Virus record (IMG/VR): IMGVR_UViG_3300035695_000003
Span: 4,406 to 68,405 of that record
From: a virus
Length of the DNA stretch: 64,000 nt
Direction: 5' to 3' (one strand)
Numbering within the stretch: the stretch's first letter is position 1; the number at the start of each line of letters is the position of its first letter. The translations under genes and the position numbers were made by a program. This document shows, piece by piece, positions 8,429-61,229 of the stretch. The notes beneath the pieces were generated by a model. It saw only the letters and a program-made list of their open reading frames with translations. It did not search any database and was not told the origin of the DNA.

Positions 8429-8445
8429 ATAGTCGTTGGTGACGG

Positions 8446-9189: not shown

Positions 9190-9230
9190 CGTCCAACTCC
9201 TTGAGAGGGGCCTTCATGGAGCTCGACAAT

Positions 9231-14835: not shown

Positions 14836-14926
14836 CCGATCTTCTTCTTGCCGTCGGTCGTAGATCACGAGTGGTCTCCGTCGGTCTGTCTGGGTTTCTG
14901 AGGCGCGCAATCTAACGCCTCGGGCG

Positions 14927-20942: not shown

Positions 20943-21000
20943 GTGCCTCGCTTTCTCGTGTGCCGTAAGATAACATCTTTCACGCCGCAACGCCAGTGCG

Positions 21001-23993: not shown

Positions 23994-24227
23994 CTACTCC
24001 TCTTTCCGCAGGAAACCGGCCGCCACGAGCGAGGCCAAGAACCTCGCCGCCGTTGCCGGGTCGATCAGCGGGGCGCCCGGCCGCTGCTCGTGGCAGCGCC
24101 GGCTCACCTCGCGCATGTAGGGCCCCTTCTGGTCCATCTCCATCCACGCGGCGCGCGTCATCTTGCGCACCACGACCCGCGCCGTCGGGCCGGCGAACGT
24201 CTTGCCGCCGCCGTCCGCGTACCGCAT
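23994..24227 (-). CDS. hypothetical small protein translationally coupled to the GATase gene
   Basis: TGATG stop/start junction at 24225-24229; MRYADGGGKTFAGPTARVVVRKMTRAAWMEMDQKGPYMREVSRRCHEQ.. Confidence 0.4.
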   Translation of the reverse strand: MRYADGGGKTFAGPTARVVVRKMTRAAWMEMDQKGPYMREVSRRCHEQRPGAPLIDPATAARFLASLVAAGFLRKEE

Positions 24228-25246
24228 CAGTCCCCCTTTCCCGTCAGTGCCCGCCGCGCCTCGTCGCGCGCGGCCTCGTGGACCCACTTCCCGTCGCGCC
24301 ACTCGTCGCCGCGGCGCCAGCTGGTGGCCGCCACCGCGCACGAGGAACAGAGCCGGACCCCGTTGATCGTGGCCATCTCGAACGGCTTCCACAGGTCGAG
24401 GCACGACCCGCACTTCTCGTACTCCTGGCCGTTCTGGCCCCAGATCTTCGTCGTGCCGAGCTGGGCGCGCCGTTTCTTGCCGCCCTTCTTCTGCGTCTTC
24501 CCGGCCCACCACCAGCTGGCCCGCGGGCTCTCGCCCGGCCGGTAGCGCACGAGCACGCCTTCGTCCAGCTCGCTGGTGCCGTTGCACGTGAGCCGGCTCA
24601 GCTCGACGGCGGCCGTCAAGATGTCCTTCGTGCTCGCGAAGGCCACCGCGTTCAGCTCGGCGACCCGCGTCCGCCACAGGGGATTCCCGCGCCGCGTCAG
24701 CCACAGCTCGGGCTCTCCGTCCGTGCCCTGTCGGCCCAGCGCCAGCGCCAGCGAGCCCTCGGCGCGCCGGAGCATCTTGCCCCAGCCGGCCGCGGGCTCG
24801 ACCGCGAGCGCCGCGATGAGGTTCGCCGAGTCGACGGCGTAGGTCGTGCCGCCCCGCGCGACGAACCGCGCGTGGTTGTTGATCACGCCGTTGTGCACGC
24901 CGACCGTCTCCGTGCCGTCCTCGTCCGCGAAGGCGAACGGGTGCGCGTTGGCGTCGGTCACCGCGCCGTGCGTGGCGAACCGCGTGTGCCCCACCAGCGC
25001 GAGCGTCGCGCCGTTCGGGACCACGAGGGCCTTCCATGCCGGATCGGCGATCAGCTCCCACGCGGGCACCGCCCGCTTGAGCACGTGCGCTGGCTCGCCC
25101 GCGTCCAGCCTGTACAGGCCGGCCGAGTCCGTCCCCCGCGCCGTCGAGAGCGCCGCCAGGCTCGCCGCGAGGCGCGCCCAGCCTGCCTTCTCGGCCTCGG
25201 TCAGCGCCGGGCCCTTCGTTCTGATGATGCCGTAGATGCCGCACAT
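24227..25246 (-). CDS. class-II (Ntn-type) glutamine amidotransferase-like protein with a C-terminal Zn-finger
   Basis: Starts MCGIYGIIRT (Cys-2 nucleophile, hallmark of GATase-II/Ntn hydrolases); ..HTRFATHG..NAHPF.. core; C-terminal CGSCLDLWKPFEMATINGVRLCSSC. Confidence 0.8.
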   Translation of the reverse strand: MCGIYGIIRTKGPALTEAEKAGWARLAASLAALSTARGTDSAGLYRLDAGEPAHVLKRAVPAWELIADPAWKALVVPNGATLALVGHTRFATHGAVTDANAHPFAFADEDGTETVGVHNGVINNHARFVARGGTTYAVDSANLIAALAVEPAAGWGKMLRRAEGSLALALGRQGTDGEPELWLTRRGNPLWRTRVAELNAVAFASTKDILTAAVELSRLTCNGTSELDEGVLVRYRPGESPRASWWWAGKTQKKGGKKRRAQLGTTKIWGQNGQEYEKCGSCLDLWKPFEMATINGVRLCSSCAVAATSWRRGDEWRDGKWVHEAARDEARRALTGKGD

Positions 25247-25721
25247 CGTCTGCCGTTCTCCTTTCAGCGGAACGCGTAATGATAACACAAACTGCTGCCG
25301 ACGACCATCCCGAGTCGGCGTCGATGCTACTATCTCTGCTGTCAGATAATCTGACAGTCGATCCGATGTTACCAATCGTCGTGTTCGGAAACGGCCTGAA
25401 CACGTGTCGCACAAGTGTTTAGCGTGTTCGCGAGTGTTCGGAACACCGTCGCTGGCCGCGTAACTTCTTATGCCGCTTTTGTTCAGGTGCTCTCGGGCAA
25501 AATCGTCATTGCTAACATCACCTCCGTTCTGGGTCCACGGAACGCCGTAACTTCTTATGCCGCTTTTGTTCCGCGTGTTCCGCGAACAGCCGGAACATTG
25601 GCATTGGCGTCGTGTTCCGCCTGTTCAGACCCTTAGGTCTGAACGGCGAACACCCATGCCCGTGTCAGAACACCTTCGATCATGGCGCCGCGAGGAGTCG
25701 AACCCCGTCGGCGCGGTCTGC
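25247..25721. promoter_or_regulatory. palindrome- and repeat-dense regulatory island (operator cluster and/or origin)
   Basis: 19-bp perfect palindrome CTGTCAGATAATCTGACAG (25339-25357). At least 5 GTGTTC...GAACAC inverted repeats (25381-25403, 25426-25446, 25576-25592, 25609-25655 nested). 26-bp direct repeat CGTAACTTCTTATGCCGCTTTTGTTC at 25459-25484 and 25546-25571. Confidence 0.5.
25681..25706 (-). other. tRNA 3'-end-like fragment (24/26 identical to the 3' end of the tRNA-Tyr gene at 8338-8363); candidate att core or tRNA remnant
   Basis: catggcgccgcGaggaGtcgaacc versus catggcgccgcCaggaTtcgaacc. The remainder does not fold into a tRNA. Confidence 0.4.
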
Positions 25722-25916
25722 CTACTTCAGGTACAGCACCCAGCCCCGCCGGGTGACCGCCATGCCGTGGTCGATGCCCTGGTCCGTCATGAAGGCAGCG
25801 ACCTCGCCCGCCGTGCTGCCGTTGGTGAACAGCGCCTTGCCCTGCTCGATCACGAAGCCTGCCAGCCTGGCGATCGTCGCCTGGCCGAGCACGCCTCCTC
25901 TCGCGATGCGCGTCAT
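25722..25916 (-). CDS. small protein encoded directly downstream of the amidoligase gene
   Basis: SD GAAAGGACG 8 nt before ATG 25916; MTRIARGGVLGQATIARLAGFVIEQGKALFTNGSTAGEVAAFMTDQGIDHGMAVTRRGWVLYLK. Confidence 0.5.
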   Translation of the reverse strand: MTRIARGGVLGQATIARLAGFVIEQGKALFTNGSTAGEVAAFMTDQGIDHGMAVTRRGWVLYLK

Positions 25917-25935
25917 CTGATCAGCTCGTCCTTTC

Positions 25936-27090
25936 TCAGGCGGCCCGCCGGAAGGCGGTCCGGTAATAGTCGGGGTTCCGGTCGAACGTCCACCGCGCCA
26001 GCGTCCGCTGGACGGCGTCGCCCATCACGATCCGCGCGAGCGACCAGCGCCGCGCTTCCGTCCACGGGGGCAGCACGCGGCGCGCCGCCTGCCGCTCCGT
26101 GCCGTCCCACGTCCGCGTCCGCTGCACGTGCAGCTCCAGCGCCCTGTCGAGCTGGTCGTCCGTGCAGCGCTGCGCGAAGTCGACCACCCGCTGCGTCGCG
26201 AGCAGCCACCAGCCTGCCTTGTTCGCGTCGAGCGTGCCCTGATGCGCCCGCATCTCGACGCGGCCGTGCCGCCACCAGTTGGTGAGGTTCAGCGCCTGGT
26301 AGCGCCCGAGCCTGCGCACGTGCGCCGGCAGATCCGTCAGCGCCGCCGAGTCTTCTGCGAACTCGCGACCCCAACGCTCGGCAAACGTGTTGCGCCGCCT
26401 GTCCGTGGGCAGCGCCTCGTGCAACGGCGTGTCGAGCGCGCCCCAGAGCCTGATCAGTCGCTGGACGAAGCCCGTCGTCCGCGCGACCCGCGCCTCGTGA
26501 TGCACGTGGAAGCCGCAGCGCCTGTCGACCCGCGCGCCCGCCGCGACCAGCGCGTTCAGCACGGCCACGACCATCGGCCAGCTCGCCGCCGTGATGGCCG
26601 GCGTCACCATCTCCCACTCGCAGCTGCCGTCGGCCTTGACGTCCCACGTTCGCCCGGTCGAATGGCGATACTCGTGATCGTCGCTGACCTGCTGTTCCGG
26701 CCACGGCGCGAGCGCTTCCCGCACCACGTCGGCCCACTCCGAGCCCGAGCGATATCGCGCGCCCGGCCCGCTCGGGTTGACGAACTCGAACTCCAGCCCG
26801 AAGCGCCGCCGCTGGTCCAGCATCGCTGGATCGAACAGCTCGCCCGGCCCGTCGGGATCGCCCGACCAGCCGATCGGATCCGGCACCGCGTCTGGCAGCG
26901 TCAGCGGGCTCGCCGGCAATTGCCGGCTTCCCCGTTGCCGCGGCCCGCGCGCCGCCTCGCTCCGGTAATACGACAGCGTGTGTCGGGGATCGGCGCAGGT
27001 CGGATGCCTGTCTCTCAGCATCCGCAGCACCGCGTCGTCCGACGCGCCGTTCGCGATGTACTCGCGAACGTCATGCGCTATCGAAGGCAC
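25936..27090 (-). CDS. amidoligase-family (GCS2/glutamine-synthetase-like COOH-NH2 ligase) protein with an N-terminal ~45-aa repeat domain
   Basis: GTG start after AAAGGGGG. N-terminal VREYIANGASDDAVLRMLRDRHPTCADPRHTLSYYRSEAARG (the repeat domain), a linker, then ..RFGLEFEFVNPSG.. (amidoligase G-x-E-x-E-F start) and ..CGFHVHHE... Confidence 0.65.
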   Translation of the reverse strand: MPSIAHDVREYIANGASDDAVLRMLRDRHPTCADPRHTLSYYRSEAARGPRQRGSRQLPASPLTLPDAVPDPIGWSGDPDGPGELFDPAMLDQRRRFGLEFEFVNPSGPGARYRSGSEWADVVREALAPWPEQQVSDDHEYRHSTGRTWDVKADGSCEWEMVTPAITAASWPMVVAVLNALVAAGARVDRRCGFHVHHEARVARTTGFVQRLIRLWGALDTPLHEALPTDRRRNTFAERWGREFAEDSAALTDLPAHVRRLGRYQALNLTNWWRHGRVEMRAHQGTLDANKAGWWLLATQRVVDFAQRCTDDQLDRALELHVQRTRTWDGTERQAARRVLPPWTEARRWSLARIVMGDAVQRTLARWTFDRNPDYYRTAFRRAA

Positions 27091-27180
27091 CGTGCCCCCT
27101 TTCTGGTGAAGTCGCCTGCTCTTCGCGGCCGCTTGCGGCGAGGCCGCTTCGCCCTACACGCGAATGATAAACACGCGCGC

Positions 27181-27224
27181 GTAACAACCACGTAACGGAA
27201 TTGTAACAATCGTGTAACAAAACG
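27181..27224. repeat. four tandem 11-bp GTAAC iterons upstream of the amidoligase gene
   Basis: GTAACAACCAC|GTAACGGAATT|GTAACAATCGT|GTAACAAAACG; GTAAC at 27181, 27192, 27203, 27214 (one helical turn apart). Confidence 0.6.
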
Positions 27225-27294
27225 ATCGGTCCAACCCGTCGCCGTGCATGCCTAGCCGGCTCGCCGAGGAGCCGGCCCCCGCGCCCGTCGCGGA

Positions 27295-27489
27295 CTAGGC
27301 CAGTATCACCCTTATCGTCGGCACGCCGGCGGTTTCTTCGGCGCCGTACGTCTCGACTTCGACCGTGAACACCACCTTCTCGCCGACCCAGGCGTGCGAC
27401 ATCGTCGCGCCCCGCACCGATCTGTATTGCGGCAGCGCCGCGCAGATCGTCATCGCCTGGTCTTCGGTCAAGCCAGTGATGCGCTTCAT
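27295..27489 (-). CDS. hypothetical protein
   Basis: MKRITGLTEDQAMTICAALPQYRSVRGATMSHAWVGEKVVFTVEVETYG.. Confidence 0.45.
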   Translation of the reverse strand: MKRITGLTEDQAMTICAALPQYRSVRGATMSHAWVGEKVVFTVEVETYGAEETAGVPTIRVILA

Positions 27490-27632
27490 TTCAGGATCGC
27501 GGTCGCCGCCGCGAACCCCAGCAGCGCCCGCGCCCCGTACTTCGCGACGCCCTCCCACATCAGGCCGTCGGCGACCAGCAATCGCCGCATTTCGGCCTCC
27601 GACACCATCGCGGCCGCGCCGCGCTTCACCAT
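27486..27632 (-). CDS. hypothetical small protein
   Basis: MVKRGAAAMVSEAEMRRLLVADGLMWEGVAKYGARALLGFAAATAILK. Confidence 0.3.
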   Translation of the reverse strand: MVKRGAAAMVSEAEMRRLLVADGLMWEGVAKYGARALLGFAAATAILK

Positions 27633-27640
27633 CGCCAGTT

Positions 27641-27922
27641 TCACAGGTCTTCGCCACCTTTCTCGCCCTGCGTGGTGTTCGCTTCGTCTTCTGCGATCTT
27701 CTTCAGGTGCTCGTAGTCCGCCAACACGTCGGCGGCGCTCTGACACGCGATCGGCATCTCCTGCACGTAAACCTTGCAGCCGTCGACGATGCCGCTGATC
27801 GCCGCCCAGAGCGCGTCTGCCTCCAACTTGTCGCCGTAAAACTCCGTCACGTCGAGGTCGTTGTCGTCGTCGACGTCGATCAGTACCAGCAGCCACCGTT
27901 TCAATTCGCCGTCTTTCGCCAT
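27641..27922 (-). CDS. acidic hypothetical protein
   Basis: MAKDGELKRWLLVLIDVDDDNDLDVTEFYGDKLEADALWAAISGIVDGCKVYVQEM.. Confidence 0.5.
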   Translation of the reverse strand: MAKDGELKRWLLVLIDVDDDNDLDVTEFYGDKLEADALWAAISGIVDGCKVYVQEMPIACQSAADVLADYEHLKKIAEDEANTTQGEKGGEDL

Positions 27923-28080
27923 TTACAATCGCCACCTTTCTCGCCCTGCTCGGCGGGAAAACGCCCGCCTCGGCCAACGCCATCTTCTGCAAGTCGCCGG
28001 TCGGGAGTCGCACCCGTGGCCCGCATTCGGCCCGGCGAAACAGCAAGGCGGGGCGCCGACCGCTCGCCCCGCCAGTCGCC

Positions 28081-28404
28081 TCACGCCGCCGCGGCGCGCC
28101 GCGCTTCGCGCTGGTAGAACCGCAGCGTCCGGCGCGGGTTGACGCAGGTCGGATACTTCTCCATCACCATCTGCAGAATCGCCCGCTCGTCCGTCCCCGC
28201 CGCCAGCGCCGCCCTGACGTCTGCCGCGATTCCGCCGCGGGGCTTGACGTCAAGCGAAAACGCCGTCCGCGCTTCGCTCTTGTAGTACGCCAGGGTCCGC
28301 GCCGCATTCGCCGTCGCGGGAAAATCGCTGTGAATCATCGCCAGGATCTGCTCGTCGGACTGGCCAGCGGCCAGGGCACTGCGCACGGCCTGCGCGGTAG
28401 TCAT
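28081..28404 (-). CDS. protein made of two tandem copies of the ~45-aa repeat domain that also heads the amidoligase
   Basis: Repeat 1 VRSALAAGQSDEQILAMIHSDFPATANAARTLAYYKSEAR; repeat 2 VRAALAAGTDERAILQMVMEKYPTCVNPRRTLRFYQREAR; SD AAAGGGA before ATG 28404. Confidence 0.6.
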   Translation of the reverse strand: MTTAQAVRSALAAGQSDEQILAMIHSDFPATANAARTLAYYKSEARTAFSLDVKPRGGIAADVRAALAAGTDERAILQMVMEKYPTCVNPRRTLRFYQREARRAAAA

Positions 28405-28956
28405 TTTGACTCGTCCCTTTCTTGCGACACTCGCGTCAGCGCTACAGTGCAGCGTCCGCGCGATGTCAATCTTTCATACGGGGTAGCGCCCCGCGCGCCG
28501 CGAACCATCCTTCCGCCCGCGTGACCTAAAGCTACTAGCTTTATGGCGTAAAGCTAGTAACAATCGTGTAACGGAAAACCGTATATTTATAAGTCCCTCC
28601 GCCCCATGCCCGAGCACGAAAAATGTATAACTATACAGCCCGGTGAATAATTATTCATTTCATCGCGTCCGCGCGACATGCGCAGCGTGCGCGCTGCAAG
28701 ATAATGGCTCAAAGGCTGAAGGACGAAGGTCCGTCGCGCCGGCGCTGCAATTTCGGGGCGGGGGGTGCTGGAAAATCGGGCGGGGGCACTAGTCCGGCGA
28801 ATCGCATCCGGAATCGAGACTGATCCAGACCATGCGCGGACAACGGCTTGCAGCCCGTGGTCCCAGAACCTGGAAGCATGATTCGCGACGGTTCGCACGT
28901 GCGCCCACGATGCGCGCACTGGCGCGCACGACCCTCTCGACCTAGGTTCGCGACAC
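28405..28956. promoter_or_regulatory. AT-richer divergent control region between the leftward early and rightward late modules
   Basis: TTGACA at ~28448 (minus strand). GTAAC iterons AGTAACAATCGTGTAACGG (28555-28573). 15-bp palindrome AAAGCTACTAGCTTT (28526-28540). 12-bp perfect palindrome GAATAATTATTC (28644-28655). Bipartite motif at 28916-28951 (see findings). Confidence 0.5.
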
Positions 28957-29100
28957 ATGAAGACCATCCAGAAGGTTCAGCTGCAGTTGCCCGCGCCCGT
29001 CGCCCGTGCCTTGGCGAGGCGCGCCCTGAAGACGAACGAGCGTCCCGCCCAGCTCGCCGCGCGCCTGGTCCTGGAAGCGCTCTTCAGGAGGGTCCGGTGA
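28957..29100 (+). CDS. ribbon-helix-helix DNA-binding protein (47 aa; not in ORF track)
   Basis: MKTIQKVQLQLPAPVARALARRALKTNERPAQLAARLVLEALFRRVR; the first gene of the rightward module. Confidence 0.45.
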   Translation: MKTIQKVQLQLPAPVARALARRALKTNERPAQLAARLVLEALFRRVR

Positions 29101-29267
29101 GCGCCCCGAAGACCGTCGTGCAGGGGCCGCCGCTCAGATACTGTTGTCTGTGCGGGCAATGGCACGTCTGGTCGAGTGCCGGGTGCCCGAACCAGGGCGG
29201 CGAGAGCCCGGCGCGCCTGACGCCCGAGCAGGCCGAACGGCTCGGCGAGCTGATCCGCCGGGCATGA
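29097..29267 (+). CDS. small Cys-rich protein
   Basis: GTGA-coupled; ..RYCCLCGQWHVWSSAGCPNQ.. Confidence 0.4.
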   Translation: MSAPKTVVQGPPLRYCCLCGQWHVWSSAGCPNQGGESPARLTPEQAERLGELIRRA

Positions 29268-29683
29268 GCGTCACCTGCAGCTACGTCGCCGCGTCGGGGA
29301 AGTCCTGCACGCAGACCACGGGCCTCTTGCCCGGGGTCGACAATCTGCCGCTCTGCGCCTGGCACGACCCCGCCCGTGCCTCTGCCAGAAGGGCCGCTCA
29401 TCGCCGCGGGGAAAAGGCCCGCGAGTCCGGCGCGACGGAGACTCCGCCCCTGACCATGGCGGATCTGCCGATCCAAGAAGTGAACTCGCTCGACGACGCG
29501 GAGCGCCTCGCAAGATGGGCGGTGCTCCAGACGGCGATCGGCAGGCTCCATCCCCGCGCGGCGATGGCCGTGGCGGGGCTCTGCCGCGAGTACCGCATGG
29601 TCCACGCCGAGGCGAGCGCCCAGCAGCGGATCCGGGAGCTGGAAGCGCAGATCAAGGCGTCCAACGAGCGCAAGAAGAGCTGA
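29264..29683 (+). CDS. hypothetical protein (terminase small-subunit candidate by position)
   Basis: ATGA-coupled; MSVTCSYVAASGKSCTQTTGLLPGVDNLPLCAWHDP.. then a helical C-terminus. Confidence 0.45.
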   Translation: MSVTCSYVAASGKSCTQTTGLLPGVDNLPLCAWHDPARASARRAAHRRGEKARESGATETPPLTMADLPIQEVNSLDDAERLARWAVLQTAIGRLHPRAAMAVAGLCREYRMVHAEASAQQRIRELEAQIKASNERKKS

Positions 29684-29703
29684 TCAACCACCACGGAGGC
29701 ATC

Positions 29704-29967
29704 ATGAGCTGGGGCATCTCGTACGCGGCGCTGCACGATCAGGCGCTCGCAGAGTTCGACAAGCAGGCCGGGGCCGTGCTGAAGGGGCAGCCGAACCACG
29801 AGCAGCTCTTCGCGGGGCTGCGGACGACGCTCGAGGCGTATCTCGGCGAGATGAAGGGCTCTGCCTGGAACAACGGGGTGCTGGTCACGACCAGCGGCCA
29901 CGTGGGCGGGGACTACGGGACCGTCCAGCTCGACGTGAAGCCCGTCCGGATCGTCCTCGGTGCCTAA
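29704..29967 (+). CDS. hypothetical protein
   Basis: SD GGAGGC; MSWGISYAALHDQALAEFDKQAGAVLKGQPNHEQLF.. Confidence 0.45.
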   Translation: MSWGISYAALHDQALAEFDKQAGAVLKGQPNHEQLFAGLRTTLEAYLGEMKGSAWNNGVLVTTSGHVGGDYGTVQLDVKPVRIVLGA

Positions 29968-30316
29968 GGCGACCTTCGTTCTCGGACCTCCGGCCTCTGG
30001 GAAGACCACCTTCGTGAAGAAAGAGCTCCCCGACGCCGTCCACGTGGTGAGCCCGTGGCAGGAGAGCTCCCAGATGGTGGGCCTGGCGGCCCGCGAGGCC
30101 GAGCGGACGTTCAAGAAGGCCCTCGCGGAGCAGAAAGACGTCGCCGTCGAGAGCGTTTCCGCCAGAGAGGCGCGCCGGCGGGCCGATCTGGCCGCCCGGG
30201 CGGGCTACGAGGTCAACTGGCACGTCATCGCGTGTCGTCATCCGCGGAAAGTGACGCCCGAGGCCGCCTACGGGACGTTCCGGTGCCTCGACTGCGGCGT
30301 CGAAGGGACGGTCTGA
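29960..30316 (+). CDS. small P-loop NTPase
   Basis: Walker A FVLGPPASGKTTFV; C-terminal CLDCG. Confidence 0.55.
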   Translation: MPKATFVLGPPASGKTTFVKKELPDAVHVVSPWQESSQMVGLAAREAERTFKKALAEQKDVAVESVSAREARRRADLAARAGYEVNWHVIACRHPRKVTPEAAYGTFRCLDCGVEGTV

Positions 30317-30317
30317 C

Positions 30318-31904
30318 GTGCCGACGGGGATCGACAGGCGCCGGCTCGCGACGCTCGAGCGCGAATGGGGCGAAGAGCTCGCGCGGCGAGAGCGCGAAGG
30401 CCAAGAGACGGACTACACGCGCTACGCGGACGATCCCGAGGGCTTCGTCCGCGAGGTGCTGCACGACGACAAGGTCTGGAGCGCGCACGACGAGGCGGAT
30501 CCCGAGATCGGCGGCACGCTCGAGATCATCCGGAGCGTGAAGGACAACGCCCAGACGGTCGTGCGCGGCGCCAACGCCATGGGGAAGGACCACACGGCGG
30601 CCGAGATCATCTGCTGGTGGGTGTACGCGTGCCACGGGCTGGCCATCGTCACGGGCCCGACGCAGCGGCAGGTCGACGAGATCGTGTTCGGCCGCGAGAT
30701 CAAGGGCCAATGGGCGCGCGCCGGACTCCCGGGCCGCGCCTTCGCCCGTGCCTTGCGCCCCGACTACGGCACCGACGACGTGAACGAGGACGGCACGTTC
30801 GCGTGGGGCGCCCTCGGGTTCGTCTCGACGGACCACTCGCACCTCACGGGCCATCACGGGCCCCGCGTCTTGTGCGTCGTGACGGAAGGCCAGGGCGTGG
30901 AAGACATGGTGTTCGACGCCATGTTCAACAACGCCACGGGCGCGAACGACCGGCTCTTGGTCGTCGGGAATCCGACGGACCCGGGCGGCCGGTTCTACAA
31001 GTCGACGAAGCCGGGCTCTGGCTGGCATTCCATCCGGCTCCGGGCCCAGGACCATCCGAACATCAGCCGCGAGGGTGCCAGGCCCGGCGACGACGGCTGG
31101 ATCTGGGGCGGACCCTCGCGCGAGTGGCTGGAGCGCGTCCGCCGCGAGACCCGCGACGAAGGCGGCGAGCGCAGCCGGTTCTGGCAGGTGTTCGTCGAGG
31201 CCCAGTTCCCCGAAGGCGCGACGGACGGCCTCGTGCCGAAGTCGTGGGTGCTCGCGGCCTTCAAGCGCTGGGAGACGGGCGACCGCGCCGCGGGCAACGG
31301 CCGGCCGCTCGTGATCGCGATCGACCCGATGCGGACGGGCGGCGACCACTGCGCGCTCTCGCCCGTGACGGGTCCCGTCGTCCACCCGCTGTATCACTTC
31401 CGGCCCGACGAGCGGAACCCGACGCTCGACATGGTGGCGAAGTGCGAGGCGCTCGCGGCCGCGTACGGCGCGATCGGGGCCGGGGCCGGCAGATCCGTGA
31501 CCTTCGTCGTGGACTCCGCGCTCATGGGCGGCGGCGTGATCGACGTGATGCGCTCGCGCGGCTGGGACGTGGTGGACTGGAACGGGAAGCGACGGGCCTC
31601 GGACGCCGAAGAGCCCGCGCGCTTCCTGGACATGCGCGCGTGGGGCTACTGGCTCCTGCGCGAGGCGTTCCGGCAGAACGTCCCCGTGATCAGGCCGGAC
31701 GACGGGCTCCTGGAAGACCTGATGGCGACGCGCTACGAGACGGGCGCCGCGGACCAGATCAAGATCATCGACAAGAAAGAGATCCGGCGGACGCTCGGGC
31801 ATTCGCCCGACAAGGCGGACGCCGTCATGATGGCCTGGACCATCGCCAACGGCGGCGGCTACGGCCGCGGTGCCGGAGACCCCGACGTGGACTACGGGAT
31901 ATGA
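30318..31904 (+). CDS. terminase large subunit
   Basis: 528 aa. ATPase region (..VVRGANAMGKDHTAAE.., ..LCVVTEGQG..) followed by a nuclease-like region (..LVIAIDPMRTGGDHCAL.., ..SPDKADAVMMAW..). Sits at the head of the structural module. Confidence 0.75.
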   Translation: MPTGIDRRRLATLEREWGEELARREREGQETDYTRYADDPEGFVREVLHDDKVWSAHDEADPEIGGTLEIIRSVKDNAQTVVRGANAMGKDHTAAEIICWWVYACHGLAIVTGPTQRQVDEIVFGREIKGQWARAGLPGRAFARALRPDYGTDDVNEDGTFAWGALGFVSTDHSHLTGHHGPRVLCVVTEGQGVEDMVFDAMFNNATGANDRLLVVGNPTDPGGRFYKSTKPGSGWHSIRLRAQDHPNISREGARPGDDGWIWGGPSREWLERVRRETRDEGGERSRFWQVFVEAQFPEGATDGLVPKSWVLAAFKRWETGDRAAGNGRPLVIAIDPMRTGGDHCALSPVTGPVVHPLYHFRPDERNPTLDMVAKCEALAAAYGAIGAGAGRSVTFVVDSALMGGGVIDVMRSRGWDVVDWNGKRRASDAEEPARFLDMRAWGYWLLREAFRQNVPVIRPDDGLLEDLMATRYETGAADQIKIIDKKEIRRTLGHSPDKADAVMMAWTIANGGGYGRGAGDPDVDYGI

Positions 31905-32116
31905 TCATCTTGCGCGAGCGCGGGGACGGGACGCCCCTCTGGGGCGGACGGCGCTCCGCGCCGGCGTCGAGGCCGCCGGCGCCTGAGAGACGTCCGCGCC
32001 AGGCACGGTGCCTCAGGCCAGGCTGCGGGGCGCCGCTCAGGCTAACCGTCAGCGCCAGAAAGCCTTGGCCCGTGCTCGTCTGCGCCGTGGACCCGCGCCA
32101 CAGGGAAGAGGCGTAG
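31901..32116 (+). CDS. possible small Cys-containing protein overlapping the terminase stop
   Basis: MIILRERGDGTPLWGG..CLRPGCGAPLRLTVSARKPWPVLVCAVDPRH; G/R/P-rich, weak. Confidence 0.2.
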   Translation: MIILRERGDGTPLWGGRRSAPASRPPAPERRPRQARCLRPGCGAPLRLTVSARKPWPVLVCAVDPRHREEA

Positions 32117-32246
32117 CACGAGAGACGCCTGACGTCTAGATTCGCGACTCGGAATGGTCCCGCCGAAGGGCGCTGCCTGCGGCGGCCAAGCGGCCGGAGC
32201 CCTCGCGCGGGGTAACCGGCCGGCCATTTTTTCTAGGAGGTCGTCC

Positions 32247-32516
32247 GTGGCCATCACCGACATGGGTCCCGTCGTCATGCACGAGGGCGCAGGCATGAAC
32301 AGGCAAGGCAGCACGAGCACGCCGCGCAGGCCGCAGGCGCGCAGGCCCGGCATCCGCCGGCTCAAGGCCCGGCGCCCCGCGAAGAAGGCCCCGCGCGCGA
32401 AGACGCGCGGCGGCCGGACGGTCCAAGACAGCGAGAACAACCCCAACGTCGCCGGGTATCACACCGCCGCCGTGGACGCCCCCCTGGGCTACCAGGGCAT
32501 GTTCGGCGCCAAGTGA
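32247..32516 (+). CDS. highly basic small protein
   Basis: AGGAGG 6 nt before GTG 32247; ..RRPQARRPGIRRLKARRPAKKAPRAKTRGGR.. Confidence 0.45.
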   Translation: MAITDMGPVVMHEGAGMNRQGSTSTPRRPQARRPGIRRLKARRPAKKAPRAKTRGGRTVQDSENNPNVAGYHTAAVDAPLGYQGMFGAK

Positions 32517-32524
32517 GGAATCAC

Positions 32525-32764
32525 ATGATCGCTCCCGACAGCACCACCCACCACGACGGCGGCCCGGCGGCCGACAAGCAGATCGACGGCGCCGAGCTCT
32601 ACGCGCTCGGTCCCGACGGCGCGCCGCTTCACGACAAGCATTCGATCAAGCGGCTCCACGACGGTGCCGTGAAGGACGGCCGCACGACGGACGCGGCCTA
32701 CCTGCACGGGCATCTCGAGCGGCGCTTCGGGGGTGGCGGCGGCCACCACGCCGACAGCTACTGA
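32525..32764 (+). CDS. hypothetical protein
   Basis: SD GAGGAA; MIAPDSTTHHDGGPAADKQIDGAELYALGPDG.. Confidence 0.45.
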   Translation: MIAPDSTTHHDGGPAADKQIDGAELYALGPDGAPLHDKHSIKRLHDGAVKDGRTTDAAYLHGHLERRFGGGGGHHADSY

Positions 32765-32949
32765 TGCCCAAGGCGTTCGCGAGCCAGGCACAGGCACGGG
32801 CGTTCCACGCCGTGGCGGCCGGTCGTTCCACGATCGGCATCCCGCGGCGCGTCGCGCAAAAGGCGGTCGCAGAGAACGCGGGCCGCAAGATCGGCGGGCT
32901 GCCGTACAAGGTCCGCCGCCTGAAGTCCACCAAGATCCGGAGCGCGTGA
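32764..32949 (+). CDS. hypothetical small protein
   Basis: ATGA-coupled; MPKAFASQAQARAFHAVAAGRSTIGIPRRVAQKAVAENAGRKIGGLPYKVRRLK. Confidence 0.45.
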   Translation: MPKAFASQAQARAFHAVAAGRSTIGIPRRVAQKAVAENAGRKIGGLPYKVRRLKSTKIRSA

Positions 32950-32950
32950 G

Positions 32951-34831
32951 ATGGGCAACGCCAGCGGCGGCAACACCGGCAGCGCGAGTCCTTTCGGCTA
33001 CGGGATGAGCGGCAGCTTCGGCTCGTATCTCTCGGGGTACGGGCTGCGCGTGCCGTCCATCGCGGGAATCACGCAGCCGCTGCTGACGCCGACCTCGTGG
33101 CTCGACTTCATCGCCGAAGACTACGGGTTCAACGTCGGCCGATGGGTCTACGCGCGTGAACATTATACCGGTGAAGTTGCGGCGCCCTGGCGCATCTCGG
33201 CCTACCTGATCCGGAAGAAGATCGGCGAGACGATCGAGGCCTTCGAGGAGCGCGTGCTGCTCGCGGACTACACGCCGTATTTCGGCGCCGTGGTCGACAC
33301 GCTGGCGGGCATGCTCGTCGCGCGCGAAGACGAGACGGACCGCACGTGGGGCAAGAACGCGAAGGGCCGCTCGACCAAGAAGATGGGTCCGCTCGGACAG
33401 ATCCACGACCAGAGCACGATCCTCGGCCGTCTGTGGGTCGATGCCGACGGCCAGCACAACTCGTGGACGAGCCTGTGGCAGATGCTCGCCACGGAGCTCG
33501 TCGCCGTGCACACGTCGTGGATCTTCGTCGACGGCGGCGCGAACGGGCTCGACCCGAAGATCAAGCTGGTGCAGGCCGAGGCCGTGAGCAACTGGCTCTA
33601 CGACCCCGACGGCAAGACGCTGATCCAGGCACTGATGAAGATCCACATCGACGTCCGCACGAGCGTCAAGGAAAATCCGCGGACGGGCTGGGAGACGCAG
33701 TGGGTCCTCTTCACCGTCGACGGCTGGCAGCGCTGGCACAAGGTCCGCAAGGAGGTCGCGGGCCAGGGCGCGTCGAACGACCAGACGGTCGTCGAGGTGC
33801 CCGAGATGATCGACGAGGGCACGTGGCACTACGAGACGCGCGCGGGCGACCGGACCATCCCGCTGCTCCGCGTGTCGCTGCCGCTCAAGCGCAACGTCGG
33901 GTACCTGCTCGCGCGGAAGTGCAACGCGATCTTCAACAAGGAATCGGAGCGCGACCACCTGCTCCGGTTCGCGACGTTCCCGCTCCTGAACATCGTCGCC
34001 GAAGACACGATGTTCAAGCGCATCGAAGACCGGCTCCGGCTCGGCAGCCGCGTGCTGCAAGCCAAGCCCACGGGCGGGGCGTCGGGCGCGCACCACTTCA
34101 TCGCGCCGCCCGCAGAGCCCGCGAAGACGATGGCGGACGCGATCAAGGAAAAGGTCGAGGCGTTCTACGCCGTGGCCTTCCGCGAGTTCGCGAGCGCCGT
34201 GTCGAACTTCAACCGCGACCGCGTCACGGCCACCGAGGTCTTGACGCAGCGCGAGGTCGGCCTCGAGGCGTTCCTCGCCGTCGTGTCGACCGCCGTGGAC
34301 AACGCCGAGAACCAGACGCTCTGGTTCCTGGAGCAGACGGTCTTCCCGAAGGACAAGAGCAAGTGGGGCCAGGCCCGCGTGGAACGGCCGAAGAACTTCG
34401 GGCCGATCAACCCCGCGCAGGCGATCGAGGCGCTGAAGGCGCGCTACGTCGGCGGCGGTCCGCTGCCCGCGGGACGCGCGGCGCAGATCAGCGCGATCAA
34501 GCGCATCGCCGAGTTCGACGGCATCGAGTTCGACGAGAACGAGATCAGCGAGGCCCTGGACTCGGCGCAGCTCGCGCAGTTCGCGGCGACGGTGCAGCTG
34601 ATCTGGCCCGACGCGCCCGACGAGCTCAAGGCCGAGATCATCGCGCAATGGGGCGAGTCGGCAGGGTACGGCACCAAGGACGACCTCAAGACGAAGGCCC
34701 TGGCGCAGCTCGAAAAGAACGCCAAGGCCAACGCCCAGAAACCGTCTAAGCCGGCCGGCGGCAACGCGAACGGCCCTCCCAAGAACGACGCGGATCCCAC
34801 CCGCGTGGACACGGCCGGCATGAACGCCTGA
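32951..34831 (+). CDS. portal protein (by size, position and composition)
   Basis: 626 aa immediately after the terminase block; acidic C-terminus. Confidence 0.55.
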   Translation: MGNASGGNTGSASPFGYGMSGSFGSYLSGYGLRVPSIAGITQPLLTPTSWLDFIAEDYGFNVGRWVYAREHYTGEVAAPWRISAYLIRKKIGETIEAFEERVLLADYTPYFGAVVDTLAGMLVAREDETDRTWGKNAKGRSTKKMGPLGQIHDQSTILGRLWVDADGQHNSWTSLWQMLATELVAVHTSWIFVDGGANGLDPKIKLVQAEAVSNWLYDPDGKTLIQALMKIHIDVRTSVKENPRTGWETQWVLFTVDGWQRWHKVRKEVAGQGASNDQTVVEVPEMIDEGTWHYETRAGDRTIPLLRVSLPLKRNVGYLLARKCNAIFNKESERDHLLRFATFPLLNIVAEDTMFKRIEDRLRLGSRVLQAKPTGGASGAHHFIAPPAEPAKTMADAIKEKVEAFYAVAFREFASAVSNFNRDRVTATEVLTQREVGLEAFLAVVSTAVDNAENQTLWFLEQTVFPKDKSKWGQARVERPKNFGPINPAQAIEALKARYVGGGPLPAGRAAQISAIKRIAEFDGIEFDENEISEALDSAQLAQFAATVQLIWPDAPDELKAEIIAQWGESAGYGTKDDLKTKALAQLEKNAKANAQKPSKPAGGNANGPPKNDADPTRVDTAGMNA

Positions 34832-35021
34832 GGGGGCACTGGCGCGCGAGGCGCGCCATGCACTAGATTCGCCGCCTTACGAGACCAGCGACGCCCGCGG
34901 CGTCCGCTCTCCTCCGCAGCATGCCGTTCCCGCGAGACCAGACTCCACCACGACGACGAACACCACGACCCGCTCCGCGATTCGGAGCGGGTCATCTCGC
35001 ACACTTTCGGAGGACGCACCG

Positions 35022-35234
35022 ATGGCCACGCTTCCCGAGCTTCCCGCGCTGAAGGAACCCGCCGCGGGTCCCAACCAGGAATCCTTTTACACGAAGAGCA
35101 TCGGTCGCGGCGACGCGTGCATCACGGAGCACCCGGACACCGGGAACTACGTGGACGGCAACGTGAGCGCGCCCGACGGTCCGCTCTTCAAGGGCCCGCA
35201 GGTGGCGCCGAGCTCCGAGCTCAGCCTGAAGTAA
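35022..35234 (+). CDS. hypothetical small protein
   Basis: MATLPELPALKEPAAGPNQESFYTKSIGRGDACITEHPDTGNYVDG.. Confidence 0.45.
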   Translation: MATLPELPALKEPAAGPNQESFYTKSIGRGDACITEHPDTGNYVDGNVSAPDGPLFKGPQVAPSSELSLK

Positions 35235-35344
35235 GCAGGTCATAACGGGACGCGGACGGCGCGCAGGCGCCTCCGTGGACTCGGCCGACCGCAGGCGGCA
35301 CCTGCGAGAACGACCGCGCGAGGGACGAGGCGCGAGGAGGCAGC

Positions 35345-36184
35345 ATGGCCGGCGAGACGATGACGTTCACGATCACGGGAGCGGACGGGCAGGAGCAGCA
35401 GGTCACGGTTCCCGCGGACTCGGTGTACAGTGCCGTCGAAGGCGCGGGGTACATCAAGCCCGACAAGGTCGGCAAGGACATCGAGCGCCGGGTGGCCTCG
35501 ATCATCAAGAACAAGGGACTCCGGGACCCCAAGGAGCTCCTGACCGACGACGAGTTCCTGGCGCAGGCGCGCGAGGGCTTCGTCAAGGCCGAAGAGGCGA
35601 GCGGCGCCAAGGACCAGCTCCGCGAGGCGCTGGACAAGCAGGCCCGCGAGATCGAAAACGGCAAGCTCAAGCCGTTGCAGGATCAGCTGGCGGCACGGCA
35701 GGCCAAGGAAGACGTGCTGCTGGCCCGCGACATGGAGCGGCAGATCTTGAACGCGGCCCGCGAGGCCGGCGTCCAGGAACGGTTCCTGAAGTCGCGCAAC
35801 GGCCGTCCGCCGTTGATCGTGCAGCAGCTGCAGGACATGTTCGCCTACGACGACGACACGAGCGAGTTCTACGCCTCGAAGGGCGAAGACTTCGTCTTGT
35901 CGAAGAAGGACGGCGACAACACGTATCAGACGATCGCCGAGGCGATCGAAGAGTGGGCGCAGGACCCCGCCAACGCGGACCTGCTGGACAAGTCGGGACA
36001 GCCGGGCCCCTCGCGCGAGCGGACGGGCAACGGCGGCGGTGGCCGGCATGAGCCGGGCATCGTGATCCTCTCCGAAGAGGAAGCCTCCGACACGCCCACG
36101 TGGACCAAGGCGCTCGCCTCCGTCAACGGCGACGCCAGCAAGATCCGCGTCAAGCGGAACGCAGAACGCAACCTGTTCATGTGA
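35345..36184 (+). CDS. scaffolding protein candidate
   Basis: SD GAGGAGG. Long charged coiled coil (..DQLREALDKQAREIENGKLKPLQDQLAARQAKEDVLLARDMERQIL..) directly upstream of the capsid gene. Confidence 0.5.
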   Translation: MAGETMTFTITGADGQEQQVTVPADSVYSAVEGAGYIKPDKVGKDIERRVASIIKNKGLRDPKELLTDDEFLAQAREGFVKAEEASGAKDQLREALDKQAREIENGKLKPLQDQLAARQAKEDVLLARDMERQILNAAREAGVQERFLKSRNGRPPLIVQQLQDMFAYDDDTSEFYASKGEDFVLSKKDGDNTYQTIAEAIEEWAQDPANADLLDKSGQPGPSRERTGNGGGGRHEPGIVILSEEEASDTPTWTKALASVNGDASKIRVKRNAERNLFM

Positions 36185-36261
36185 CCGTAGGCGGCCGGCC
36201 GGCCGCCGTCGGCAACACCATCGCGCCGGCTCAACGGCCGACCTAAACCGGAGGATTCACC

Positions 36262-37407
36262 GTGGCCAACCTGCTCACCAGCGGGCTCGCGTACAACCCG
36301 TACTTCTACGCGCAGACCGCGCTGCAGGTGCTCTACAAGCGCCTGGGCATGGCGTTCTACGTCAACCGCTCCATCGAGCGCGACAAGGGCTCGGCCAAGG
36401 GCGACACCATCCAGCTCCGCCGGCCCAAGAGCCGCACGCCGCAGAACATGCCGATCGCACTGGCATCGTTCGCGGACGTCACCCCGGACTACACCAACCT
36501 GGTGATCAACCAGTGGATGGGCGACGGCTTCCGGCTGACGGACAAGGAAAAGACCCTGACGCCCGAGATGTTCGTCACGGAGCACATCGCTCCCGTGGCC
36601 GCGGGCATCGCGGACCAGATCGACCAGAACCTGGCCGGCCTGGCGCTGGAGTGCCCCTGGATCGTGGCGGCCGACGGCACCACGCCGACGAACGACTTCG
36701 GCAACGCGCGGCTCACCCTGCTCCAGAACAAGGCGCCGCTCGTCAACGAGCGGGACTACGCGTACCAGACGGATCCCATCATCCAGTCCCGGTACGAGAA
36801 ATCGCTCACCTTCCTGCAGGCCAACACCGCGACGGACGCGGCCCTGCAGCGCGAAGGCCAGCTCGGCGTGAAGTTCGGGTTCCGCATCTTCCCGAACCAG
36901 AACGCGCCGACCTACGCGACCGGCACGGGCGCGCTGACCAGCCCGATCACGTCTGCCAGCCCCGCGGTCGGGGCGACGCAGATCACGATCACCGGGACGT
37001 CCGGTTCCGGCACGCTGAAGCGCGGCACGGTGATCACGATCACCGGCGACCCGCAGCTGTACGCGGTCACCGCGGACGCGGCCGTCGGCGCGACCAGTGT
37101 CACGGTCTCGATCTCGCCCGCCCTCGCGGCGGCGCCGAGCAACGGCACCGTGGTCAGCTTCACGCAGACCTCGTCCAACTCGATCGGCCTCGCGTTCCAC
37201 AAGAACGCGTTCGCCCTCGTGCTGCAGCCGCTCGAGGACGCGGGCCCGGGCATCATCAGCGCCACGGTGACCGACCCGATCACCAACCTGTCCATGCGCT
37301 CGCGCGTGTGGGGAGACGGCGGGTCCGGCGCGACCTTCTGGGCGCTCGACGCCCTCTGGGGTTACAAGACGCTCAACCCGAACCTCGCGACGCGCGTCCA
37401 GATCTAA
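36262..37407 (+). CDS. major capsid protein
   Basis: 381 aa; GTG after GGAGG; follows the scaffold gene; composition typical of HK97-fold coat proteins. Confidence 0.6.
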   Translation: MANLLTSGLAYNPYFYAQTALQVLYKRLGMAFYVNRSIERDKGSAKGDTIQLRRPKSRTPQNMPIALASFADVTPDYTNLVINQWMGDGFRLTDKEKTLTPEMFVTEHIAPVAAGIADQIDQNLAGLALECPWIVAADGTTPTNDFGNARLTLLQNKAPLVNERDYAYQTDPIIQSRYEKSLTFLQANTATDAALQREGQLGVKFGFRIFPNQNAPTYATGTGALTSPITSASPAVGATQITITGTSGSGTLKRGTVITITGDPQLYAVTADAAVGATSVTVSISPALAAAPSNGTVVSFTQTSSNSIGLAFHKNAFALVLQPLEDAGPGIISATVTDPITNLSMRSRVWGDGGSGATFWALDALWGYKTLNPNLATRVQI

Positions 37408-37479
37408 GCGGACGCGGGTCAGACACCTCTGGCGGCGGCCTTCGGGCCGCCGCCTGACCCCGTGATCACGGAGACCAGC

Positions 37480-37809
37480 ATGACGCAGAGCATCCACGCC
37501 TCGGCCGCGGCCGAGATGAGCTTCACCAACGCGAAGGCACGTCTCGGCGACGGACCCATCGAGACCCACGAGGTCTTCGACAAGACGACCGGCGCGGTGA
37601 TCGTCGTGGACCATCGGACGTTCGACGAGAACACGATGACGCACGACGAGCTCGAGGCCAAGACCGCGGCGGCGGCACACGCCAAGCAGGCGGCGGCCGA
37701 CGCCCTGATCAACGCCAAGGCCCTCGCGGCCGAGGCGGCGGCGAAGGCGAAGGCGCTGGCAGAGGCGGCCGAAGAGGCCGAGAAGGCTGCCAAGGCTTCC
37801 GAGCAGTAA
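37480..37809 (+). CDS. Ala/Lys/Glu-rich helical protein (head decoration?)
   Basis: MTQSIHASAAAEMSFTNAKARLGDGPIETHEVF.. then an AEAAAKAKALAEAAEEAEKAAKA tail. Confidence 0.45.
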   Translation: MTQSIHASAAAEMSFTNAKARLGDGPIETHEVFDKTTGAVIVVDHRTFDENTMTHDELEAKTAAAAHAKQAAADALINAKALAAEAAAKAKALAEAAEEAEKAAKASEQ

Positions 37810-37890
37810 GCGTTCGCCCAGCACGACCTGTACCAGATCCCGCGCCGGCCGGCACGTCCGGTCGGCGCGGTCTTCTTTTCGGGAGCAACC

Positions 37891-38055
37891 ATGCGCAAGC
37901 CCAAGCTCGGAAGCGGCGCCCGCTTCAAGCACCTGAAGTCGTCCCTGCAGGGACGCGGCGGGGTCAAGAACCCCGGTGCCCTGGCAGCGTTCATCGGACG
38001 CAAGAAGTACGGCGCGACCAAGTTCGCGCGCCTGTCGGCCGGCGGCAAGAAGTGA
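37891..38055 (+). CDS. small basic protein (54 aa; not in ORF track)
   Basis: SD GGGAG; MRKPKLGSGARFKHLKSSLQGRGGVKNPGALAAFIGRKKYGATKFARLSAGGKK. Confidence 0.35.
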   Translation: MRKPKLGSGARFKHLKSSLQGRGGVKNPGALAAFIGRKKYGATKFARLSAGGKK

Positions 38056-38075
38056 CCCGGGTCTAGGAGATCACG

Positions 38076-38618
38076 ATGGCGACGCCGTATTTCGACACGA
38101 CCAATCCGGCGACGCTGCTGCTCCTGCCGCCCGCCTATCGCAACGACCCGGAGCTGAAGAACGTCGCGGCGCTGGCCGAGGCGATGGTGATCGGCTGGTA
38201 CACGATGAACCCGCCGTACTTCTTCTACACGGCGGCCAGCGTGGCCAACGTCAGCCAGTGGATCTGGCCGTCCACGGAGCGCGGCGGCGGCGAAGACATC
38301 ACGACCCAGAACGCGCCGCTCAACGCCGTGGTCCCGAGCCTGCGGGTGTACCTCACGGGCTACAAGCAGGACGCGTCGGACACCCTGGTCGACCCGAACC
38401 TGAAGATCGCGCTCCAGATGGCGATCGCGTCCGTGGTCGCCTGGACGCTCGCGCAGTGGAAGGAATTCGAACCGGGCGTCGCCAGCGTCACGCAGCAGGG
38501 CGTCGCCGGTCCCAGCAGGTCGCGGACGTTCCGGCCCTACGCGGAGAGCTCGTTCCCGCCCGACTGGAACATGCTCCTGGAGCCGTTCAACTCGAAGCCC
38601 GTCACCTGGGCGTTGTGA
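38076..38618 (+). CDS. head-tail joining region protein
   Basis: SD TAGGAGA; MATPYFDTTNPATLLLLPPAYRNDPELKNVAALAEAMVIGWY.. Confidence 0.5.
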   Translation: MATPYFDTTNPATLLLLPPAYRNDPELKNVAALAEAMVIGWYTMNPPYFFYTAASVANVSQWIWPSTERGGGEDITTQNAPLNAVVPSLRVYLTGYKQDASDTLVDPNLKIALQMAIASVVAWTLAQWKEFEPGVASVTQQGVAGPSRSRTFRPYAESSFPPDWNMLLEPFNSKPVTWAL

Positions 38619-61219: not shown

Positions 61220-61229
61220 CGTTCTGCTC

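Follow-up and report, generated by a model that had tools for sequence, protein, structure and literature searches.

The DNA considered here is a stretch of 64,000 nucleotides (64 kb; hereafter the window) out of a 68.3-kb metagenomic phage contig (Logan SRR11729748; IMG/VR record IMGVR_UViG_3300035695_000003), and its subject is a bipartite motif, GCACTGGCGCGC-N14/15-CTAGRTTCGC, which an earlier reading of the letters (the original prediction) had singled out as a possible promoter of late, rightward transcription units. The gene map, based on G+C content at third codon positions and combined with the gene calls returned with L002, comprises leftward genes from about 28404 down to 864, rightward genes from 28957 to 58398, and leftward genes again at 58446-63855, among them a family A DNA polymerase. 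A divergent region of 550 nt separates the first two arms. The rightward arm is structural and encodes a terS-like protein, terL (30318-31904), the portal (32951-34831), a scaffold and a P22-like coat protein (36262-37407), and the leftward arm encodes an SNF2 helicase, a primase/helicase, nucleotide-metabolism enzymes and amidoligase-type proteins. Of the three sites first noted, one lies at the head of the rightward arm; the other two occupy the two largest non-coding gaps of that arm, which follow terL and the portal gene. The G+C content of the window is 68.4%, slightly below the 70% given at first.

Direct reading of the sequence locates GCACTGGCGCGC at 28916-28927 and 34836-34847, which are its only two exact copies on both strands of the window, CTAGGTTCGC at 28942-28951, and CTAGATTCGC at 32136-32145 and 34863-34872; together, the last two 10-mers have only three exact copies on both strands. 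The bipartite element at 28916-28951 and 34836-34872, with gaps of 14 and 15 nt between its halves, and the recurrence of the downstream half at 32136-32145 were verified in this way. The full pattern matches twice in the window and in none of 100 dinucleotide-shuffled sequences. The two full copies have unrelated spacers (ACGACCCTCTCGAC and GAGGCGCGCCATGCA), so neither a recent duplication nor copying as a single unit can account for the two conserved blocks. The rarity of CTAG that had been remarked on was borne out (15 copies versus approximately 58 expected); non-coding DNA holds about 10 of these, so the rarity is mainly due to coding constraints. The first copy had been placed 15 nt before an ATG, which is correct for the beginning of CTAG (ATG at 28957) and incorrect for the end of the motif, 5 nt before the ATG, or the end of TAGGTT, 8 nt before it. 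A scan of IMG/VR for the exact bipartite motif returned no match, and the relaxed form GCACTGGCGC-N16-18-CTAGRTT returned 10 matches there, all chance-like, in unrelated contigs of 39-62% G+C. GRTTCGC and RTTCGCGAC were also considered as a repeated operator half-site and rejected, as neither is enriched (16 vs. 13.6 and 95 vs. 88.7, respectively); a copy at 52166 falls inside a gene.

The two full copies belong to a larger set. A scan for CTAnnnT and TAGnnT brought up two minus-strand sites of the same architecture, and the pattern TGGCGC-N17/18-TAnnnT has six matches in the window versus 0.35 expected (maximum of three in 300 shuffles), an enrichment that holds even though TAnnnT itself is depleted (107 vs. 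197 expected). The six exact matches and three sites with relaxed -35 variants (B, H, and I) make up at least nine sites, which are lettered A to I. On the plus strand, promoter A (28916-28951) reads GCAC-TGGCGC-GC, with the hexamer at 28920-28925, a 17-nt spacer, TAGGTT at 28943-28948 and the discriminator CGCGACAC; promoter B (32114-32145) has the -35 variant TAGCAC at 32114-32119, a 17-nt spacer, TAGATT at 32137-32142 and the discriminator CGC; and promoter C (34836-34872), which starts 5 nt past the portal stop codon, reads GCAC-TGGCGC-GC, with the hexamer at 34840-34845, an 18-nt spacer, TAGATT at 34864-34869 and the discriminator CGCCGCC.

The remaining six sites are on the minus strand, and each has a 17-nt spacer. 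Promoter D (17021-17053; GCAC-TGGCGC, hexamer 17049-17044, TATCAT 17026-17021, or GCACTGGCGC-N16-TATCAT) lies upstream of a 70-aa open reading frame (16980-16768) and the primase/helicase gene (16771-14927). Promoter E (14909-14941; GAGC-TGGCGC-GC, hexamer 14937-14932, TAGATT 14914-14909, or (GAG)CTGGCGCGC-N15-TAGATT) overlaps the primase stop codon and is upstream of the next leftward gene. In promoter F (9228-9256; TGGCGC 9256-9251, TAGATT 9233-9228), the upstream gene ends with the TAG as its stop codon, and the downstream gene, of 55 aa, begins with the ATG at 9189. Promoter G (1290-1318; TGGCGC 1318-1313, TATTTT 1295-1290) is separated by 9 nt from the ATG at 1280. Promoter H (20967-20999; GCAC-TGGCGT, hexamer 20995-20990, TATCTT 20972-20967) and promoter I (2752-2780; TGGCCA 2780-2775, TATATT 2757-2752) have downstream ATGs at 20942 and 2726, respectively.

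Several regularities run through the set. The spacer is 17 nt in eight of the nine sites and 18 nt in one (C), the orientation matches that of the downstream gene in all nine, and every site is either intergenic or within the final codons of the gene before it, 8-152 nt ahead of a start codon. T1, A2, and T6 of the -10 hexamer are present in all nine; at positions outside the site selection, base 3 is only G or T and base 5 is T in eight of nine. In A, C, D, and H, the hexamer directly follows GCAC, and four of the five window copies of GCACTGGCG fall in such sites. GCACTGGCGCGC is identical over 12 nt at A and C and matches at 10 of 12 positions at D, so worded as a consensus it is a putative extended -35 element of which A and C are the best matches. 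In an unbiased test of all 256 4-mers at the -35 offset of the 107 TAnnnT hexamers, TGGC ranked first (9 vs. 1.19, p = 3.5e-6). As a separate observation, the 5' leaders after promoters D and E (minus strand; 17005-16994 and 14900-14888) share CAGA(A)ACCCAGAC...CGGAGAC.

The distribution of the sites bears on the proposal that the motif marks late, rightward units, which did not hold up: six of the nine sites are on the minus strand ahead of leftward genes, D precedes the primase/helicase operon, E lies just downstream of it, and the others are at 9256, 1318, 20995, and 2780. Since sites D-I head leftward units, the motif cannot be a late-gene signal; it is, in all appearance, a genome-wide promoter family.

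Among the INPHARED phages, no match was found by megablast of 27000-37000, GTDB genomes scanned with the portal protein and with an alignment of portals revealed no prophage relatives, and terL is approximately 30% identical to terL of Streptomyces and Arthrobacter phages, too distant for host assignment. The closest relatives, found via the portal protein, are the metagenomic phages L003, L004, and L005, whose portals are 68-70% identical; primase homologs were too divergent to serve as a route to the relatives' early arms. At the post-portal site, the hexamer is TAGATT in the window, TAAAAT in L003, TATATT in L004, and TATACT in L005 (contexts cTAGATTcgccgcc, cTAAAATctgccgcc, TATATTcgccgcc, and cTATACTgtcc, respectively), and at the post-terL site it is TATACT in L003 and TATATT in L004 (contexts cTATACTcgcgcc and cTATATTcgcgcc, with cTAGATTcgcgac in the window). 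The genes downstream of these syntenic sites are orthologous (E = 3e-21 each), and only T1, A2, and T6 of the -10 are constant across the sites. Constant T1, A2, and T6 with a free middle are the signature of a -10 hexamer of the sigma70 family, and the downstream half of the motif (TAGGTT or TAGATT) is, on this comparison, a putative sigma70-type -10 hexamer. Intergenic TAnnnT is rare in the relatives and often has T[G/A/T]GC 17-18 nt ahead of it, for example TGGCTT, TGGCGT, TGGCTC, TGGCAT, TAGCGG (twice), TAGCAG, TTGCGG, and TTGCGT; GCGTAGCAG-N18-TAGATT in the relative L010 resembles GCGTAGCAC-N17-TAGATT of window site B. Such loose, clade-wide variation of the -35 has the look of an element read by a sigma factor.

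Conservation around these sites also takes other forms. The initial transcribed region past the post-portal -10 is conserved in three phages (window 34870-34890, L004 8040-8062, L003 9505-9528), with TTCGCCGCCTTACGAGACCAG in the window corresponding to TTCGCCGCCTTACGGGACCAG in L004, and this conservation exceeds the needs of a promoter alone. Nearby, the window has two copies of CGAGACCAG (34880 and 34933) and, at 34967-34993, a hairpin of 11 bp. A 22-nt block, GAAAATCGGGCGGGGGCACTAG at 28771-28792, has a near-identical counterpart, GGAAATCCGGCCGGGGCACTAG, in L003 (1272-1293), the two lying 110-165 nt ahead of the first rightward gene in the window and L003.

Two of the nine sites stand immediately before a start codon. 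At site A, TAGGTT-CGCGACAC-ATG (28957) has the form TAGGTT-N8-ATG, with the first T 14 nt before the ATG, and at site G, TATTTT-TGGCGCCTC-ATG (1280) has the form TATTTT-N9-ATG, with the first T 15 nt before the ATG; neither has a Shine-Dalgarno sequence (SD), which is present at 68 of the 91 gene starts in the window. The same arrangement is found in L003 (TATACT-N9-ATG and TAGATT-N8-ATG), L004 (TATATT-N9-ATG), and L006 (TACCTT-N7-ATG). For leaderless genes of high-GC bacteria, a TANNNT signal approximately 12 bp upstream of the start codon has been reported (PMC3160421), and the TAnnnT placement at sites A and G, without an SD, fits this description. With the start codon 8-9 nt past the -10, promoters A and G should give rise to leaderless or almost leaderless mRNAs, and the nearly leaderless first transcript that had been proposed for copy 1 is supported by TAGGTT-N8-ATG at 28957 without an SD. 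At site B, an ATG at 32154, 11 nt past the -10, is in frame with an SD-led open reading frame starting with the GTG at 32247.

The first rightward gene (28957-29100, plus strand, 47 aa, without an SD), which had been labeled as a ribbon-helix-helix (RHH) gene, is predicted by AF2 with low confidence (pLDDT 68) as an N-terminal coil and two helices; its product has no sequence match in Pfam, PHROG, or the PDB, and Foldseek against the PDB gave no fold match. The first genes after D (16768-16980, minus strand) and A (28957-29100, plus strand) encode very small basic proteins of 70 and 47 aa. By eye, both may follow a strand-helix-helix pattern; no similarity between the two was detectable, and PDB and profile searches gave no match to known families.

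It is likely, at a probability of roughly 0.7, that the motif is a sigma70-family promoter read by the host RNA polymerase holoenzyme. CTAGRTTCGC would comprise a -10 hexamer (TAGGTT or TAGATT, in general TA[G/T]nTT) and a GC-rich discriminator, GCACTGGCGCGC would carry the -35-like hexamer TGGCGC 17-18 bp upstream of it, and the two full copies would be the best matches to (GCAC)TGGCGC-N17-(C)TAGATT in a family of at least nine promoters. Promoter A would then drive the small genes, the terS-like gene, and terL; promoter B the small genes and the portal; and promoter C the scaffold, coat, and tail genes, up to the terminator at 58.4 kb, while six sites would head leftward units, including the primase/helicase operon. 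The -35/-10-type reading offered at the outset gains support from the variation of the syntenic -10 as TAnAnT, the rank of TGGC among the 4-mers at the -35, the spacing of 17-18 nt, and the gene-wise orientation. The alternative offered alongside it, an activator site next to a promoter, is not needed to account for the data. No sigma factor or RNA polymerase gene was found among the approximately 55 window proteins scanned against Pfam and PHROG, and therefore the host RNA polymerase is the likely enzyme. From what was read directly, namely sequence, statistics, orientation, and synteny, we infer that RNA polymerase binds, where it starts transcription, and that the reader is the host primary sigma factor.

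Several points weigh against this assignment. TGGCGC shares only two of six positions (T1 and G3) with TTGACA, from which the -35 of the host may differ, and a scan of 27000-38500 for the E. coli-type consensus returned no site; this atypical -35 together with the empty scan is the main weakness, and leaves a little room for a phage factor. Identity over 10-12 nt at A, C, and D goes beyond the normal demand of sigma region 4, and the many window proteins without annotation may include such a factor. The frequency of T[AGT]GC at the -35 of co-oriented intergenic TAnnnT in the relatives (7/21 vs. a background of 1.8%, p = 6e-8), which counts in favor of the promoter reading, is an optimistic figure, because the pattern was chosen after the relatives had been inspected. 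At A and G, the A of the start codon is the 9th-10th base past the -10, slightly beyond the canonical +1.

Some of these points are what would be expected if the 12-mer were the site of a phage-encoded late activator or sigma-appropriation factor acting at, or replacing, the -35 next to a host-type -10 and marking a temporal class, a proposal that is unlikely here. The T4 middle promoters with MotA/AsiA and the phage activators Mu Mor/C and P2 Ogr provide the models for it. The length of the identity at A, C, and D, greater than that of a normal -35, and the unlikeness of TGGCGC to TTGACA speak for such a factor, as do the C-TAGRTT-CGC common to the three rightward sites alone and the presence, by the divergent region, of another promoter-like class (TTGTTAC repeats with TACAAT or TATCAT near 27180-27220 and 28557-28572) that could be the truly early one. 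However, the box also stands ahead of the primase/helicase operon and other leftward genes, the -35 hexamers of the relatives vary loosely in a sigma-like manner (TGGCTT, TGGCGT, TAGCGG, TTGCGT), and no activator- or sigma-like protein was recognized among the approximately 55 proteins, many of which lack annotation. In its most elaborate and still rather improbable version, (GCAC)TGGCGC is the target of an unrecognized phage factor that redirects the host RNA polymerase (of the MotA/AsiA type or a class II activator), with the GC-rich palindromes of the three rightward promoters and the terminator after B adding a late switch. The palindromes are a feature of their own: inverted repeats are found at A (TGCGCGC-actg-GCGCGCA, 28911-28928), at B (AGGCGT-N10-ACGCCT, spanning the -35), and at C (8 bp, TGGCGCGC-gag-GCGCGCCA, 34840-34858), and at G the -35 is in the loop of an 8-bp hairpin (TCGGGGGA..TCCCCCGA) followed by a T-run, so that a terminator overlaps promoter G. 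Perfect stems of 6-8 bp thus occur at A, B, C, and G, when 16% of random 45-mers have a stem of at least 6 bp (p = 0.008 for the mean stem length).

These stems, and the position of small, possibly strand-helix-helix genes directly after A and D, would fit the doubtful idea that the GC-rich inverted repeats of A, B, and C are operators for a phage repressor or autoregulator, layered on the promoter and explaining part of the conservation of the 12-mer, with the small protein encoded first after promoter A as the candidate regulator. Yet the palindromes differ in sequence and in their register to the -10, GCGCGC palindromes easily arise at 68% G+C, the hairpin at G with its T-run is better read as a terminator, and the RHH assignment found no support in Pfam, PHROG, or the PDB, in the AF2 model (pLDDT 68), or in a fold match. 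That the upstream half acts as RNA, as a terminator or a 3'-end-stabilizing hairpin of the preceding unit (terL or portal) beside an independent promoter with a -10 only, is very unlikely. The hairpin at C starts 9 nt past the portal stop codon, the corresponding place in L003 is taken by another hairpin (GGCTTT-TCGG-AAAGCC), and at G the hairpin and T-run do overlap a promoter; nevertheless, copy A has no upstream rightward gene to terminate, and the hairpins at A, B, and C are not followed by a U-tract, unlike the clear terminators of this phage at 37840-37870 and 58414-58442. Because the stems formed at A and C draw on different segments of the common 12-mer, it is the sequence of the 12-mer that is conserved, not a stem. 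A chance resemblance, or a functionless relic of a local duplication, could appeal to the existence of only two full copies and to the merely unrelated, chance-like matches in IMG/VR; it is effectively refuted by the shuffles without a match, the pattern enrichment, and the 4-mer test, besides which it would have to accommodate the unrelated spacers, nine oriented sites, and the conservation of the -10 at syntenic positions.

With the sites taken as host-read sigma70-type promoters, the timing of the late genes would be set elsewhere, candidates being the discriminator, the palindromes over the rightward promoters, and the terminator after promoter B. The three rightward promoters have in common GC-rich inverted repeats of 6-8 bp over the -35 and spacer, and a C before the -10 combined with a CGC discriminator is found in all three rightward sites and in none of the six leftward ones. 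Between promoter B and the SD and GTG at 32247, a terminator-like hairpin followed by T6 (32192-32232, plus strand) could be an attenuator or a target of antitermination; L003 and L004 lack it, and their orthologous gene begins 9 nt past the -10. It may be conjectured that these rightward-site features (the C/CGC, the inverted repeats, and the hairpin-T6 at B) carry temporal control. At the far end, a bidirectional intrinsic terminator (58414-58442), at the junction of the rightward structural arm and the leftward DNA polymerase arm, is the predicted end of the unit begun at promoter C. A canonical intrinsic terminator with a U-tract is also found at 37840-37870, after the coat gene and a 109-aa gene, and that at 58414-58442 likewise has a U-tract.

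Other repeats and non-coding stretches were noted in the window. Overlapping palindromes at 28527-28556 are made up of three TAAAGCTA half-sites; ACAATCGTGTAAC is present at both 27206 and 28560, and TTGTTAC occurs four times in the 28527-28572 and 27181-27220 regions. All of these repeats adjoin TACAAT or TATCAT -10-like hexamers upstream of leftward genes, and the operator-like repeats of the two regions may represent a second, separately regulated promoter class. On the minus strand, a long non-coding gap at 25247-25721 contains many GAACA(C) repeats, a 25-nt direct repeat, AACAAAAGCGGCATAAGAAGTTACG, at 25570-25546 and 25483-25459, and a fragment resembling the 3'-end of a tRNA, GGTTCGACTCCTCGCGGCGCCA, at 25704-25683; L003 has TCGTTCAGG-type repeats at 850-1050. 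An origin with iterons and an att-like relic are possible readings of this gap. A seeming gap in the tail-gene region (47184-47438) was rejected as a promoter, since it reads as coding, similar to L003 17839-17939, and is probably a frameshifted extension of the tail assembly chaperone.

As for the remaining gene content, an Rfam scan found a tRNA alone, and the phage encodes a tRNA-Tyr (GTA) at 8339-8429 on the minus strand; the relative L010 has, by eye, a tRNA array with a CTAGATT -10-like element ahead of it. A set of minus-strand genes (10608-11659, 18011-18490, 24227-27090, and 62643-63410) comprises a dATP/dGTP diphosphohydrolase N-terminal domain (MazZ-like), a nucleoside 2-deoxyribosyltransferase, GGACT, GATase_6, Amidoligase_2, and a methyltransferase, which suggests DNA base modification or nucleotide remodeling. 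A peptide deformylase is encoded at 9692-10324, and three successive genes at 1336-3233 (minus strand) match Pfam families named for gp34, gp33, and gp32 of Pseudomonas phage Pam3.

The host-read promoter family would provide a usable model, (GCAC)TGGCGC-N17-TA[G/T]nTT, and a map of transcription units for a phage clade that is known from metagenomes alone, without a cultured relative or a known host. Two genes would, on this model, be expressed from leaderless mRNAs, and the model could aid host assignment by matching the promoter consensus and leaderless usage of candidate hosts. It also corrects the idea of a late-gene signal, as late timing must then reside elsewhere. If, on the other hand, a phage factor reads the TGGCGC box, a new system of phage transcription control would exist in an uncultivated clade.

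Among known elements, some can be set aside. Sigma54 promoters read TGGCAC-N5-TTGCW, whereas TGGCGC is followed by GCACGACCC at A and GCGAGGCGC at C, without TTGC 5 nt on, and its partner TAnnnT is 17-18 nt away; sigma54 was rejected on this ground. A promoter for a T7-like single-subunit RNA polymerase was likewise rejected, as no such polymerase gene was found among the approximately 55 proteins and the motif is bipartite with an unconserved spacer, and an ECF sigma factor was ruled out on spacing and sequence. In T4 middle promoters, a MotA box at -30, 11-13 bp from a sigma70 -10, is used while AsiA remodels sigma region 4. The present sites resemble these in combining a host-type -10 with a conserved box other than TTGACA that is repeated across the phage genome; by contrast, a canonical -35 distance of 17 bp, instead of 11-13 bp, separates the box from the -10, and no MotA- or AsiA-like genes were detected. 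The lambdoid late promoter PR' is followed by the terminator tR', which is overcome through antitermination by Q. Promoter B is similarly followed by a hairpin and T6 within approximately 50-90 nt, before the SD of the next gene, but no Q-like gene was identified, the terminase genes are upstream of B, and the arrangement is absent in L003 and L004. The lambda cI transcript from PRM is a leaderless phage mRNA, and sites A and G share with it a -10 immediately ahead of the start codon and the lack of an SD. They differ in that the leaderless-type genes, one that opens the structural arm (47 aa) and one of 138 aa in leftward orientation, are not known repressors, and in that their transcription starts are predicted.

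The closest parallels are sigma70 promoters, which comprise a -35 TTGACA, a spacer of 17 ± 1 bp, and a -10 TATAAT. The sites share their bipartite form, the spacer of 17-18 bp, the invariant T1, A2, and T6, the gene-wise orientation, and a GC-rich discriminator, and depart from them in the -35 TGGCGC (T[G/A]GC in the relatives), the preference for T5 in the -10 (TAGATT), and an extended -35 conserved over 10-12 nt in four sites. A search of the literature for TGGCGC as a -35 brought up nothing relevant. High-GC variants of this architecture include the TAnnnT -10 of Actinobacteria and Deinococcus-Thermus (PMC3160421) and the alphaproteobacterial promoter CTTGAC-N17-CTATAT (PMC2873474). The sites resemble these variants in the degenerate TAnnnT, in the C that often precedes the -10 (CTAGATT and CTATACT, as in CTATAT), and in leaderless starts with the -10 approximately 12-15 nt before the start codon; the -35, on the other hand, is neither CTTGAC nor TTGACN, and most of the phage genes have a strong GGAGG SD and few are leaderless. 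Taken together, the sites appear to behave as sigma70-type promoters with an atypical -35, of which A and G are predicted leaderless-gene promoters, and are thus elements of a known kind.

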